From Aquabacterium fontiphilum (lineage in GTDB: Bacteria > Pseudomonadota > Gammaproteobacteria > Burkholderiales > Burkholderiaceae_C): a stretch of 64,000 nucleotides of DNA. Made by a program: the position numbers and the translations under genes. Below are positions 1,832 to 8,697 of the stretch, piece by piece; within the stretch, counting starts at the first letter, position 1; each line of letters starts with the position of its first letter. A model generated the notes under the pieces. That model had not been told where the DNA came from and did no database searches. It worked only from the letters and a program-made list of their open reading frames with translations. Location: positions 84,847 to 148,846 of the forward strand of contig NZ_JAAAPN010000005.1 in assembly GCF_009909205.1 (NCBI RefSeq), written 5' to 3'.

Positions 1832-2797
1832 ATGTGGGCCCTGATCCAACAGTTTCTGCCGTTTTTCCTGCTGGTCGCCCTGGGCTGGGCGGCCACGCGC
1901 CGTGGGCTGGTGCCGGTCGATGGCATTGCCGCGCTCAACGTCTTCGTGCTGTATTTCGGCCTGCCCGCGATGCTGTTCAGGCTGGGGTTGGGCGGCGCGC
2001 TGTTGCAGCCGGGCCTGTCGGGGCTGGTGCTGGCTTATGCGCTGGCCGGCGGGGTTGTGCTCGCGCTGGGCTTCAGGTGGGCGGCTAGGCAAAGGCTCGG
2101 CCGCATGGATGCCGGCATGGCGGCGCTTGTGACGGCTTTCCCGAACACCGGCTTCCTGGGGCTTCCGCTGCTCACTGGCTTGCTGGGCCCACAGGCAGCC
2201 GGGCCCGTGGCGGCCACCATTGCGGTCGACGTGCTGCTCTTCAGCACCTTCTGTCTGGCCTGGGGGCATGCCGGCGTGGGGCGGTGGGCGCTGTGGCCGC
2301 CGCTCGGGGGGGCGCTGCGCAATCCCTTGCTGCTGTCCATGGGGGCGGGCATGGTTTTCCAAGCGTGCGATTGGACCTTGCCGGGGCCGCTGGATGCCAC
2401 GGTGATGCTGCTTGGGCAGGCTGCTTCGCCTGCCGCGCTGTTCACGCTGGGTGCCATCCTGGCGCGCGCTGGCGTGCGCGCGCGCATGACGCATCACGTG
2501 GGGGCAGCGACTGGTTTCGCCCTGGCCTGGCCAGTCGGCGTCAAGTTGCTGGTGCATCCGGTCTTGGTCTGGGGCGCCGGCCTGGCATTGCAGGCCCTGG
2601 GGCTGCCGGTGTCCGACGCAGGGCTGTTGGCGCTGACCCTCGCGGCCGCCCTGCCTGCGGCCAGTAATGTGTCCATGCTGGCCGAGCGCGTGGGTGCCGA
2701 CACACAGGTCGTGGCCCGCATCATCCTGTGGACCACCGCGCTGGCGCTGTTGAGCCTCAGTGTGTGGGCGCCGTTGCTGGGCTTGAGCGTCGGTTAG
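1832..2797 (+). CDS. AEC (auxin efflux carrier) family permease
   Basis: Polytopic membrane protein, [19 protein letters not shown]… with about 10 predicted TM segments. Internal Met at track ORF 1802 + 30 nt chosen as the start. Confidence 0.75.
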
Positions 2798-5700: not shown

Positions 5701-8697
5701 ATGCCGGAGGTCCTCTGGCGCGCCCTGGGCGACGATCTGGCCGCCTGCGTCGCCGCCTTCGGGGCCGAGTTCGATCAACCAGTCGCAGGCCCGGACCACA
5801 TCGAGGTTGTGCTCGATCAGGATGATGCTGTTGCCGGCGTCGAGCAGCTTGGCGAACGCCCGCATCAGCTTGGCGATGTCGTCGAAGTGCAGGCCGGTGG
5901 TGGGCTCGTCGAACAGGAAGAGCGTGCCCTTGCGCGCGGTGCGCTGGCCGCTTTTGGCCATCTGCGTGGCGGCTTCGACCAGGTGCCCCGCGAGCTTCAG
6001 GCGCTGCGCTTCGCCACCTGACAAGGTGGGCACCGGCTGGCCCAGCTTCACGTAATCCAGTCCCACGTCGGAGAGCGGTTGCAGCGCGCGCACCACGTCC
6101 ACATCCTGCGCAAACAGCTTGATGGCTTCCGCGACCGTGAGCTCCAGCACGTCCGAGATGCTGAGCTTGCGGTTGCCACGCTCGATCACCACCTCGCGCA
6201 CCTCGGCGCGGAAGCGCGTGCCGTCGCAATCGGGGCAACGCAGGTACACGTCGCTCAAGAACTGCATCTCGACGTGCTCGAAGCCCGAGCCGCCGCAGGT
6301 CGGGCAGCGCCCGTTGCCCGCGTTGAAGCTGAAGGTGCCGGCCGTGTAGCCGCGCTCGCGCGACAGCGGCGTCACCGCGAACAGCGTGCGCACGGCATCA
6401 AACGCGCCCACATAGCTGGCCGGGTTCGAGCGCGCCGTCTTGCCGATGGGCGACTGGTCGACAAAGCTGACCGCGCTCAGCCAGTCGGCGCCCAGCAGCT
6501 CGTCGTGCTCACCCGGGCTCTCGGTGGCCTCGCCGAAGTGACGCAACAGGGCGGGGTGCAGGATGTCCTGGATCAGGGTCGATTTGCCTGAGCCGCTCAC
6601 GCCCGTGACACCCACCAGGCGCTGGAGCGGAAAGGCCACGTCCAGGTTCTTCAGATTGTGCTCGCGCGCGCCTTGCAGAATCAGCTTGGGGGTGCTCTCT
6701 GCGACAGGGCGGCGCTGCCCGATGCCGATGCGGCGTCGCGCGCCCAGGTAGGCGCCGGTCAGCGTCTCGGCCTGCTTGAGTTCGTCGGGCGTGCCATCGA
6801 ACACGATGCGTCCGCCTTGCGAGCCGGGGCCGGGGCCCATGTCGATGACGCGGTCGGCAGCCAGCATCACGGCCGGGTCGTGCTCGACCACCACCAGCGT
6901 GTTGCCCGCGTCGACCAGGCGCTGCATGGCCAGGTTGATGCGGTCCATGTCGCGCGGGTGCAGGCCGATGGAGGGTTCATCCAGCACGAACAGCGTGTTG
7001 ACCAACGAGGTGCCCAGGGCGGTGGTCAGGTTGATGCGCTGCACCTCGCCGCCCGAGAGCGTACGGCTCTGGCGATCAAGCGTGAGGTAGCCCAGACCCA
7101 CATCGACCAGGTACTTCAGCCGCGTGCGGATCTCATCCAGCAGCAGTTGCAGGGCCTCCTGGTCGCCCTGCTTGGGCAGGCTGACGAAGCTGAAGAAGCG
7201 CTGCAGCTGCGAGATGGGCAACAGCATCAAGTCATGCAGGTTCAGGCCCGGCAACGCCGCAAAGGCCTCGGCATCCAGCGCGACCCCCTTGGGCTTGAAG
7301 CGCCGCGTGGGGGCCAGCACCGCATCGGCATCGGCCTGCGAGCCCAGGCGCCACAGCAGCGACTCGGTTTGCAGCCGCGCGCCTTCGCAGTCGGGACAGG
7401 GCGTGTAGCTGCGGTACTTTGACAAGAGCACACGGATGTGCATCTTGTAGGCCTTGCTCTCCAGGTATTCGAAGAAGCGGCGAATGCCGTACCACTGCTT
7501 GTTCCAGTTGCCTTTCCAGTCGGGATCGCCTTCGAGCACCCAGTGCTTTTGATCGGCCGTCAGTTGCGACCAGGGCGTGTCGCGCGGAATGGCCGCGTCG
7601 CCCGCGTACTTGATCAGATCGGCCTGGCACTCGGCCCAGGCGGGTGTCTGCAAGGGCTTGATGGCGCCGCCGCGCAGCGTTTTCTTGGCATCGGGGATGA
7701 CCAGACCCCAGTCCACGCCGATCACGCGGCCAAAGCCCCGGCAGGTGGGGCAGGCGCCCGCAGCCGAGTTGAACGAGAACATGCCCGGCGTGGGCGTGCT
7801 GTAGCGGCGGTGACTCTCGGGGCAATGCAGGCCGCTGGAGAAACGCCAGAGTTCGGGCTCGCCGTCGTCCGGGCTCAGCGCGTAGACGGTGATGTGGCCA
7901 TTGCCGCGTTTGAAGGCGACCTCCAACGCCTCCATCACGCGCGGGCGGTCGAGGTCGGCACCGGTGGCGTCGGCGCCCACACGGAAGCGGTCCACCACCA
8001 CATCGAGCACCAGGCGCTCGTCGTCGCCCAGGTCCGTGCCGACGGCATGGGCGGCCTTCTTGGTGGTCTTCTTGGCGGCGACTTTCTTCGCGGCTTTCTT
8101 GGCCACAGGTGCCGCACCGGCATCCACGGCCACCTTCACCACCCGCTGCGCCTGGATGCGCGAAAAGCCGCTCGCCGAGAGCCACTCTTCCATCTGTTCG
8201 GGTGAGGTGTTGGCGGGCAACTCCGCGCCAAACGTGACGACCAGGCGCCGACCACCTTGCGTGGCCACGCAGCGGCGCAGCAGCTCTTCGAAGACCGACT
8301 GCGGCGTGTCCTCTCGCACCGGCAGGCCGGTGCTCTGATCGAACAACTGCGCGGCGCGTGCGAACAACAGTTTGAGGTGGTCGTTGAGTTCCGTCATCGT
8401 CCCGACCGTCGAGCGCGAGGTGCGCACCGGGTTGGTCTGGTCAATGGCAATGGCCGGCGGCACGCCTTCCACGCGGTCCACCGCCGGGCGGTCCATGCGG
8501 TCCAGGAACTGGCGGGCGTAGGCGCTGAAGGTCTCCACATACCGGCGCTGGCCCTCGGCGTAGAGGGTGTCGAACACCAGCGACGACTTGCCCGAGCCGC
8601 TGGGCCCCGTCACCACGGTCAGCTCCCCGGTGCGGATGTCCAGGTCGAGGTTCTTCAGGTTGTGCTGGCGGGCGCCGCGGATGCGGATGTCGGACAT
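2794..8697 (-). CDS. Tandem-duplicated UvrA-like excinuclease ABC subunit A paralogue (~1967 aa, four ABC nucleotide-binding modules)
   Basis: N-terminus [21 protein letters not shown]…GPSGSGKSS is the classic UvrA start. Four Walker A motifs ([18 protein letters not shown] x3) and four LSGGE signature motifs are present, with DEP(S/T)(I/T/V)GLH D-loops. Cys pairs ([34 protein letters not shown]) mark zinc modules. Start taken at Met30 of track ORF 2794..8784. Confidence 0.85.

Follow-up and report, generated by a model that had tools for sequence, protein, structure and literature searches.

A gene in a 64,000-nucleotide stretch of the Aquabacterium fontiphilum genome (contig NZ_JAAAPN010000005.1, positions 84,847 to 148,846; this whole stretch is called the window below, and positions are counted from its first letter) encodes two UvrA units joined in a single protein chain. 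These units are not plain duplicates, each having become specialised. The N-terminal unit (N unit) carries the insertion domain (ID), while the full UvrB-binding domain (UBD) is found in the C-terminal unit (C unit). It is virtually certain that the gene is a genuine member of a family of fused UvrA proteins, and we propose, with moderate confidence, that its product is an asymmetric, single-chain sensor of DNA damage in nucleotide excision repair (NER) that belongs to an old fused UvrA family.

One chain with two unequal UvrA units

Relatives of the gene were sought in species-representative genomes, where at least 596 stretches encode them. The best 80 loci were analysed, and the alignments referred to below comprise 81 sequences. 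The fused UvrA has four Walker A motifs (at residues 31, 699, 1086, and 1645) and four LSGGE signatures (at residues 547, 892, 1484, and 1841), together with four Walker B and four H-loop motifs. Judged by Walker A, Walker B, signature, Q-loop, and H-loop, none of the four ATPase sites is damaged, and they show practically no variation in the alignments. Ten CxxC pairs build five of the six possible zinc modules, the missing one being Zn1 of the N unit. Both units match the NCBIfam UvrA equivalog models TIGR00630 (1865.8 bits, with a cut-off of 729.8) and PRK00349 (1892.8 bits, with a cut-off of 1147), and the top PDB sequence matches of the fused protein are all UvrA. These motif counts and double model matches agree with an earlier note on this DNA, which had described one chain of about 1967 amino acids (aa) with two UvrA-like units, four ABC ATPase modules, and multiple CxxC zinc modules.

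Identity to Escherichia coli UvrA is 44% for the N unit and 47% for the C unit, and the two units are 41% identical to each other (three-way alignment). Their accessory domains are distributed unequally. The insertion domain model PF17755 scores 38.8 bits in the N unit and finds no match in the C unit (Pfam). In the N unit, this domain measures 116-119 aa in 81/81 sequences, with a mean net charge of +6.8 and an invariant W354. The stub that takes its place in the C unit measures 43 residues here and 33-47 aa in 81/81 sequences, where E. coli UvrA has about 125 aa; its mean net charge is -5.7, and it contains a conserved DD..GRE motif. The UvrB-binding domain model PF17760 matches the C unit over its full length with 83.8 bits, and this domain has 32 invariant positions and a mean pairwise identity of 65%. 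In the N unit, the same model reaches 22.7 bits, under the gathering score of 23.3, and covers model positions 69-106 only, that is, the C-terminal third. This N-unit UvrB-binding-like domain is not decaying, since its conservation within the family (mean pairwise identity of 61-63%) nearly equals that of the C-unit domain.

The N-unit Zn1 is lost in the window protein, where its first knuckle reads FDQST and its second HCPESH. It is absent throughout the 81 sequences except in the Bordetella/Achromobacter clade, whose N unit retains both Zn1 knuckles and matches PF17760 with 31.8 bits. Zn2 and Zn3 are present in both units, and neither C-terminal zinc-finger module is damaged. The earlier note had called the two UvrA-like units complete, which does not hold: PF17755 is found in the N unit only, PF17760 is above its cut-off in the C unit only, and Zn1 has gone from the N unit. 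The domain scan that it had proposed for the two halves assigns the insertion domain to the N half and the full UvrB-binding domain to the C half, and neither half is complete.

The division extends to single residues. Among 26 UBD/Zn1 positions that are invariant in seven canonical UvrAs (E. coli numbering), C units keep Q130, L151, P153, K159, G160, R178, D180, G181, and H198, and are without D205, R206, and E222. N units keep V202, D205, R206, R216, and E222, and have lost Q130, L151, K159, G160, R178, D180, G181, and H198. The two units hold complementary subsets of the canonical invariants.

Across the 81 sequences, purifying selection is seen on every part of the fused UvrA except the linker between the units and an insert in the N unit. 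The linker is 45-120 aa long in relatives, with a mean pairwise identity of 35%. An insert of at least 25 residues is found at the same N-unit loop in 15/81 loci, with a net charge of at least +4 in 9 of these 15. The Lys/Ala-rich insert is lineage-specific and arose in several lineages at one loop. Histone-tail-like Lys/Ala-rich inserts of varied length and sequence occupy this surface loop in L002, L003, L027, L043, L067, L075-L077, L080, and L081.

The two halves were modelled separately with AlphaFold2 from a shallow alignment (25 sequences at >=74% identity), and the models served for fold class and disorder only. The C-unit model has a predicted local distance difference test score (pLDDT) of 70 and a predicted template modelling score of 0.60; its top Foldseek matches are 3uwx, 2r6f, and 3zqj, with template modelling (TM) scores of 0.66-0.72. 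For the N-unit model (pLDDT 58), the top Foldseek matches are class I UvrA.

The longest open reading frame (ORF) at this place, 2794..8784 on the minus strand, gives 1996 aa from a GTG codon (ORF list). The ATG at 8697 yields a standard UvrA N-terminus, which supports it as the start of the fused uvrA; it is favoured over the GTG extension because a cross-genus element at 8744-8755, considered below with the upstream region, falls within that extension. Table 1 gives the positions of the features discussed.

Table 1. Features of the fused uvrA gene and its upstream region (window positions)
Feature	Positions	Strand	Remarks
Complete coding sequence of fused double UvrA	2794..8697	-	ATG at 8697, 1967 aa, TAA stop 2794-2796
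N unit, aa 1-1004	5686..8697	-	First and second nucleotide-binding domain (NBD-I, NBD-II), degenerate UvrB-binding-like domain, full insertion domain, Zn2 and Zn3 only; PDB alignments, Pfam
Walker A 1 GPSGSGKS, aa 31-38	8584..8607	-	Conserved in family
N-unit UvrB-binding-like domain, aa 126-290	7828..8322	-	Degenerate yet conserved within family
Lys/Ala-rich low-complexity insert, aa 190-225	8023..8130	-	Inside N-unit UvrB-binding-like domain; predicted disordered
N-unit insertion (DNA-binding) domain, aa 320-433	7399..7740	-	Between Zn2 cysteines C316/C319 and C434/C437
Walker A 2 GVSGSGKS, aa 699-706	6580..6603	-	Invariant 81/81
Inter-unit linker, aa 1005-1057	5527..5685	-	Poorly conserved except PLQxL..ARR motif preceding C unit
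C unit, aa 1058-1967	2797..5526	-	NBD-I and NBD-II, full UvrB-binding domain, Zn1-3, without insertion domain; PDB alignments
Walker A 3 GVSGSGKS, aa 1086-1093	5419..5442	-	Invariant 81/81
C-unit UvrB-binding domain, aa 1183-1330	4708..5151	-	Between Zn1 cysteines C1175/C1178 and C1332/C1335
Acidic stub in place of C-unit insertion domain, aa 1360-1402	4492..4620	-	Between Zn2 cysteines C1356/C1359 and C1403/C1406
Walker A 4 GVSGSGKS, aa 1645-1652	3742..3765	-	Invariant 81/81
Conserved element CCCTAGAATGTT	8744-8755	-	-10-like TAGAAT at 8747-8752; about 50 bp before ATG

Distribution, annotation, and ancestry of the family

At the best 80 loci, query residues 1-1961 are matched at 61-85% identity, and each locus holds a single uninterrupted ORF in one frame. 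The loci cover Sphaerotilaceae, Comamonadaceae, Burkholderiaceae, and Alcaligenaceae, with the genera Aquabacterium, Rubrivivax, Variovorax, Comamonas, Cupriavidus, Burkholderia, Pandoraea, Caballeronia, Mycetohabitans, Bordetella, and Achromobacter among them. Two genome-eroded Candidatus (Ca.) Burkholderia leaf symbionts in this set carry the fused gene, and in Cupriavidus and Burkholderia multivorans it is located on chromosome 2. The best 120 matches of a protein search are double-length relatives only (1639-2110 aa, nearly all above 1800). Their sources include Aquabacterium (80-93% identity), Caldimonas, Methylibium, Leptothrix, and Sphaerotilus, and all named proteins among them are called "excinuclease ABC subunit UvrA" by PGAP.

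In PLSDB, the fused gene is found on 134 Ralstonia megaplasmids and on chromids of Burkholderia, Cupriavidus, Caballeronia, and Mycetohabitans. One Ralstonia copy is labelled "Excinuclease ABC subunit A, dimeric form" by RAST and another uvrA_2 by DFAST. In the genome paper of Cupriavidus metallidurans CH34 (PMC2864759), the uvrA2 of CHR2 is given as the paralog of a gene on CHR1; judging from the Cupriavidus chromosome-2 loci, rather than from its own sequence, Rmet_4549 (the CH34 uvrA2) is probably of the fused type. In the same database, UvrA-like genes less than 60% identical to canonical UvrA also occur on several hundred plasmids from Enterobacter, Klebsiella, Acinetobacter, Pantoea, Citrobacter, and Streptomyces, and some of its "plasmids" are evidently whole chromosomes (e.g., Neisseria gonorrhoeae, 2.17 Mb; E. 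coli, 4.8 Mb).

The family is thus already labelled in databases, and the gene in the window is an ordinary member of it. The rarity implied by the earlier note is contradicted both by these labels (the RAST "dimeric form", uvrA_2, and the CH34 uvrA2) and by the number of relatives in species-representative genomes. The phylogenetic spread of the >1900-aa architecture, which the earlier note had singled out for study, proves to be wide in Burkholderiales, and the same domain pattern recurs in Verrucomicrobia. That note had also allowed that this exact architecture might turn out to be a well-characterised and ordinary UvrA; annotated it is, and no functional characterisation was found in the literature. 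In a full-text literature search, no paper was found to deal with UvrA in a fused, duplicated, or "class III" form, nor with the "dimeric form" role of RAST. Two points appear to be undescribed in the searchable literature: the complementary retention of domains, with its fit to the recognition-ID/trans-UBD model set out below, and the way in which lineages divide into those with LexA-box promoters and those with TAGAAT promoters. These are properties of the family and are not special to the window.

When representatives at 50% identity are considered, about 130 of the best 150 clusters span 1500-2340 aa, and dozens of 50%-identity clusters show the same pattern, in which only the N unit has an insertion domain. 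Bearers of this pattern include Verrucomicrobium sp. GAS474, Opitutales, "bacterium HR30", and Ca. Kinetoplastibacterium crithidii. The last of these, a trypanosomatid endosymbiont with a reduced genome of 816,901 bp, has a 1809-aa fused UvrA (P0151) whose C-unit UvrB-binding domain reaches just 14 bits with the family model, a hint that constraint on this domain is relaxed there.

The representatives P0121-P0270 include double-length UvrAs of at least four further kinds, with apparently independent origins. Proteins of about 2330 aa (P0140, P0145) have both accessory domains in both units, and their units are mutual sisters near canonical UvrAs; in those of about 1600 aa (e.g., P0194, P0196) neither unit has a UvrB-binding domain; others combine a canonical-like N unit with a divergent C unit. 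Double UvrAs seem to have arisen several times.

The ancestry of the fused family was approached with neighbour-joining trees, which are rough and without support values, and with a canonical set from seven phylogenetically distant bacteria. All N units form one clade and all C units another, with mirrored branching. Because these mirrored clades lie outside the tight cluster of canonical UvrAs, the trees point not to a recent event but to an ancient one: either a single fusion that joined units which had diverged beforehand, or a duplication of great age. A recent tandem duplication of the host uvrA was considered and rejected, given the 41% identity of the units and their position outside the canonical cluster; P0140 and P0145, in contrast, exemplify a recent duplication of that sort. 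The fused UvrA is accordingly classed as an old paralog family.

Upstream region and regulation

A conserved promoter-like element, CCTAGAATG, is present in the window upstream of the fused uvrA. The 12-mer CCCTAGAATGTT occurs once in the window (0 expected by chance) and lies just upstream of the fused gene in 9 loci from 5 genera. Its C[CT]TAGAAT core is found 34-143 bp upstream of the fused gene in 51/81 loci, and C[CT]TAGAATG(T/G)T is conserved in otherwise unalignable intergenic DNA across genera of Comamonadaceae and Sphaerotilaceae. A strict sigma-70 scan gave no promoter and no matching -35 near TAGAAT, an element that was recognised through the comparison of loci. The element is best described as a putative conserved -10 region without a recognisable -35, and it may be a promoter of an unusual type or the site of a regulator. 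A hairpin at 8721-8736 in the 5' untranslated region does not exceed what chance would give and shows no conservation.

The pattern CTGT-N8-ACAG, which is the E. coli-type LexA box, as the earlier note had taken it to be, has a different distribution. There are 16 such sites in 92 loci (about 1.8 Mb), and 14 of them precede the fused gene by 40-210 bp (L034, L035, L047, L051, L055, L058, L062, L067, L068, L071, L075, L077, L080, and L081), mostly as boxes of the CTGTAT..(A/G)TACAG type. The taxa with a box are Cupriavidus, Pandoraea, B. multivorans, Caballeronia, Mycetohabitans, Ca. Burkholderia, Bordetella, Achromobacter, and Comamonas, whereas Sphaerotilaceae and most Comamonadaceae are without one and share the TAGAAT-type element instead. 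In the boxed lineages, the fused gene is very probably an SOS gene, to go by these upstream sites, and the boxes in relatives therefore tie the family to DNA damage. The 64-kb window has just one CTGT-N8-ACAG, at 26637, no more than expected by chance, and this is in line with the earlier note, which had seen no obvious LexA box upstream of the gene.

Proposed mechanism

A cryo-electron microscopy study of Mycobacterium tuberculosis UvrA describes how, in the canonical dimer bound to damaged DNA, the flipped lesion is gripped by one of the insertion domains, the "recognition-ID" (PMC11985968). The other, the "support-ID", is released once a first UvrB has docked on the UBD of the same protomer, which results in a UvrA2UvrB1-DNA complex (PMC11985968). 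The recognition-ID may then pass the lesion to UvrB on the opposite protomer (PMC11985968).

The fused protein may reproduce this arrangement within one chain. The flexible linker of about 50 residues would let the units fold back on each other and pair within the molecule as the protomers of UvrA2 do, and this pseudo-dimer would bind DNA in its central groove and use ATP at the four sites to test for lesions. We consider an intramolecular pseudo-dimer with DNA-dependent ATPase activity quite likely; a covalent pseudo-dimer had been suggested in the earlier note and is the natural reading of two units in a single chain. With one basic insertion domain facing an acidic stub, the sensor would therefore be permanently asymmetric. 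The insertion domain on the N unit and the best UBD on the C unit would correspond to the trans pair that a canonical dimer uses on damaged DNA, and it is because the fused protein keeps exactly this ID/UBD pair that a constitutively asymmetric sensor with one UvrB is proposed. UvrB would be recruited, probably as a single copy through the C unit, to which its binding is assigned on the overall preservation of the domain, and lesions would be fed into UvrBC excision. Cooperation with UvrB in excision repair is, in our judgement, rather probable.

As to its place in the cell, SOS induction is probable in Burkholderiaceae, Alcaligenaceae, and Comamonas, while the Aquabacterium copy studied here would be driven by the conserved TAGAAT-type promoter, without a LexA box. 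The protein is probably a second sensor that acts beside a canonical uvrA product, as in Cupriavidus, and a supplementary role of the fused gene in this organism is likely, somewhat more so than the cooperation with UvrB. A stronger version of the proposal remains tentative. It holds that the sensor is hard-wired, with the N-unit ID as the lesion clamp, the opposite UBD loading one UvrB and no more, always in the same polarity, the degraded N-unit domain and its polycationic loop acting as an extra DNA tether, and the protein being perhaps the main or only UvrA in Sphaerotilaceae/Comamonadaceae.

Several observations weigh against the asymmetric sensor. Intramolecular pseudo-dimerisation is deduced from the architecture, the structural models covering one half each, and the N-unit model is of low confidence at its pLDDT of 58. 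The preference for the C unit as the UvrB-binding half is not clear-cut at the residue level: of the 26 canonical-invariant UBD/Zn1 positions, 58% are kept in C units and 44% in N units, and the charged invariants D205, R206, R216, and E222 survive in the N unit only. No LexA box lies upstream of the gene in the window or in the Aquabacterium loci. The flanks are without ssb, uvrB, lexA, or any other repair gene, and there is no conserved operon. The genera for which coexistence with another uvrA is indicated, Cupriavidus and Ralstonia, lie outside Sphaerotilaceae and Comamonadaceae. Finally, no experiment on any member of the family was found in the literature.

Alternative explanations

The first alternative is that in Sphaerotilaceae/Comamonadaceae the fused gene has displaced canonical uvrA and, as the sole housekeeping UvrA, serves both global and transcription-coupled NER. 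In these two families the fused gene is located on the main chromosome, and the strongly conserved, LexA-box-free TAGAAT element of 51/81 loci would suit a housekeeping gene. The fused gene is also present in every genome of the best 80, including a Burkholderiaceae chromosome of 1.72 Mb (L028), and is kept in the 0.82-Mb genome of Ca. Kinetoplastibacterium; every UvrA domain type is held at least once across the two units, and the PGAP name is plainly UvrA. However, the units are 42-50% identical to the canonical cluster, whereas canonical UvrAs are much closer to each other across phyla, which is typical of a paralog and not of an ortholog passed on by vertical descent. Another uvrA coexists with the fused gene in Cupriavidus and Ralstonia, and the secondary replicons that host it in Ralstonia, Burkholderia, Cupriavidus, Caballeronia, and Mycetohabitans were counted in favour of paralog status. 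We therefore regard displacement as rather unlikely.

A second alternative accepts the pseudo-dimer and denies its asymmetry in function: both UBD-type domains would bind UvrB, as the equivalent of A2B2, and the lost insertion domain would be dispensable. The purifying selection on the N-unit domain, its pairwise identity of 61-63%, its retention of VVVDR, R216, and E222, and the Bordetella/Achromobacter N units with both Zn1 knuckles and a 31.8-bit PF17760 match all speak for this possibility. Yet the N-unit domain of the window protein is below the Pfam cut-off, has neither the AP..RKG motif nor the R.DG motif nor Zn1, and is interrupted by a disordered polycationic insert. A symmetric function is unlikely on this balance, and asymmetric loading of UvrB remains the preferred reading.

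It is less probable still that the protein acts without UvrB, like the class II proteins DrrC, Ecm16, and Deinococcus radiodurans UvrA2, clearing ligands from distorted or drug-bound DNA or signalling damage with no excision. The position of this old lineage of paralogs, apart from the canonical UvrAs, would fit such a role, as would the fact that neither unit has the full set of canonical-invariant UBD residues, and class II proteins do act without UvrB/C (bioRxiv 10.1101/2022.02.02.478902). Class II is, however, defined by the absence of the UBD, and here a full-length PF17760 domain (83.8 bits, 32 invariant positions) is present in every member. The LexA boxes of 14 relatives fit a repair role, and the locus offers no antibiotic-biosynthesis context.

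That two adjacent uvrA-like genes were merged by a missed stop or frameshift, an outcome the earlier note had named as fatal to its claim, has nothing but the unusual length in its favour and is practically refuted, because all 80 related loci hold one ORF in one frame; the 81 independent sequences come from isolates and metagenome-assembled genomes alike, the top 120 protein matches are 1639-2110 aa long, the linker has a conserved motif, and NCBI, JGI, RAST, and DFAST all call a single coding sequence.

Genomic neighbourhood

The fused uvrA ends in a 4-bp convergent overlap (TTAG, 2794-2797) with a Mem_trans/AEC transporter gene at 1802..2797 on the plus strand, just as the earlier note had reported. 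In the nearest strain (L001, a JGI metagenome contig whose UvrA is about 100% identical), a chemoreceptor gene separates uvrA from the AEC gene, so that the overlap is not conserved and is, for this reason, without evident significance. The inserted gene, at 16066-17616 of L001, encodes a 516-aa PAS/HAMP chemoreceptor. The genes that flank the fused uvrA code for transporters, chemoreceptors, an AraC regulator, HMG-CoA lyase, prfC, and ahcY. No canonical uvrA was detected by tblastn in the 64-kb window, in the 26-kb L001 locus, or in the flanks of the 80 loci; for Burkholderiales, PLSDB has fused copies only and no canonical uvrA. A divergent ORF of 151 aa at 8890-9345 (plus strand), 193 bp from the uvrA start, begins with a hydrophobic helix and matches nothing in Pfam; in L001, the JGI annotation gives it a greater length.

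Further along the window, positions 27800-47700 form an island of lower GC content (58-63% vs 66-70%) that was probably acquired horizontally. It contains an FtsH-like AAA/M41 protease, Kelch and Band_7 proteins, an HNH nuclease, and an RNA-repair cluster composed of RtcA (35186-36250), RlaP (36219-37055), RtcB (37104-38324), and a divergent RtcR (38533-40143), followed by a DUF5691 / DUF5682 / VWA-CoxE gene set at 41546-47678.

Significance

The questions to which such a protein speaks are whether the sensor is UvrA2UvrB2 or UvrA2UvrB1, how a symmetric dimer chooses the damaged strand, and what the four ATPase sites do. In a homodimer, every mutation appears twice, whereas in a natural single-chain UvrA the halves are distinct and the four ATPase sites can be addressed individually. 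With one insertion domain and one well-preserved UvrB-binding domain, the fused UvrA would be a ready-made tool for these questions in NER. Should the hard-wired version be true, a natural single-chain "heterodimeric" UvrA exists, and A2B1 and A2B2 could be dissected site by site. The family is common in Burkholderiales, including plant pathogens and opportunistic human pathogens (Ralstonia, Burkholderia, Bordetella, and Achromobacter), and in many of these Burkholderiales the fused gene is apparently part of the SOS regulon and may contribute to damage tolerance and mutagenesis.

Comparison with known UvrA types

The closest well-known relatives are class I UvrAs (E. coli; structures 2r6f, 3pih, 3zqj, and 3uwx). 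Each unit of the fused protein has their order of NBD-I, signature I, NBD-II, signature II, and a C-terminal zinc-finger hairpin; the best sequence and fold matches are of this class, and the equivalog models score far above their cut-offs. Class I proteins, in contrast, are homodimers of about 940 aa rather than one 1967-aa chain, and the fused protein has one insertion domain instead of two, lacks Zn1 in one unit, and divides the canonical UBD invariants between its units. Measured per protomer, it departs from class I in the UBD, the ID, Zn1 and thus the set of three zinc modules, and chain length, and agrees with it in having two composite ABC ATPase sites per unit.

The fused UvrAs of Ralstonia megaplasmids and of Cupriavidus-Burkholderia chromids belong to the same family, with full-length matches at 66-72% identity and the same domain pattern: homology is collinear over the whole length, the N unit has the UBD-like domain and the ID, and the C unit has the UBD without the ID. 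These copies sit on secondary replicons. Those of Cupriavidus, Burkholderia, Caballeronia, and Mycetohabitans have a LexA box, whereas the copy in the window is without one and has the Lys/Ala-rich insert in addition. The chlamydial double UvrA (NF001885 / PRK00635, a model of 1809 positions) is likewise a head-to-tail double UvrA in one chain; membership of that family was rejected, as the fused protein scores 1101.5 bits where the cut-off is 3054, with no more than a local match.

Class II UvrAs (D. radiodurans UvrA2, 2vf7; Ecm16, 7sh1; DrrC) resemble the fused protein in being UvrA paralogs that occur beside a canonical gene, with intact ATPase sites and an insertion domain. They are homodimers of about 800-840 aa without a UBD, and their structures are weaker matches than those of class I. 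The fused UvrA is not of class II because it has UvrB-binding domains, full in the C unit and degenerate in the N unit.

The most instructive comparison is with the M. tuberculosis UvrA2UvrB1-DNA complex (9ga3, PMC11985968), in which the ID acts on one protomer and UvrB sits on the UBD of the other; the fused protein keeps one ID and has its best UBD on the opposite unit. In M. tuberculosis, asymmetry is induced in a symmetric homodimer, to which a second UvrB can still bind, whereas in the fused protein the asymmetry is encoded in the sequence itself; the correspondence between the two is our proposal.

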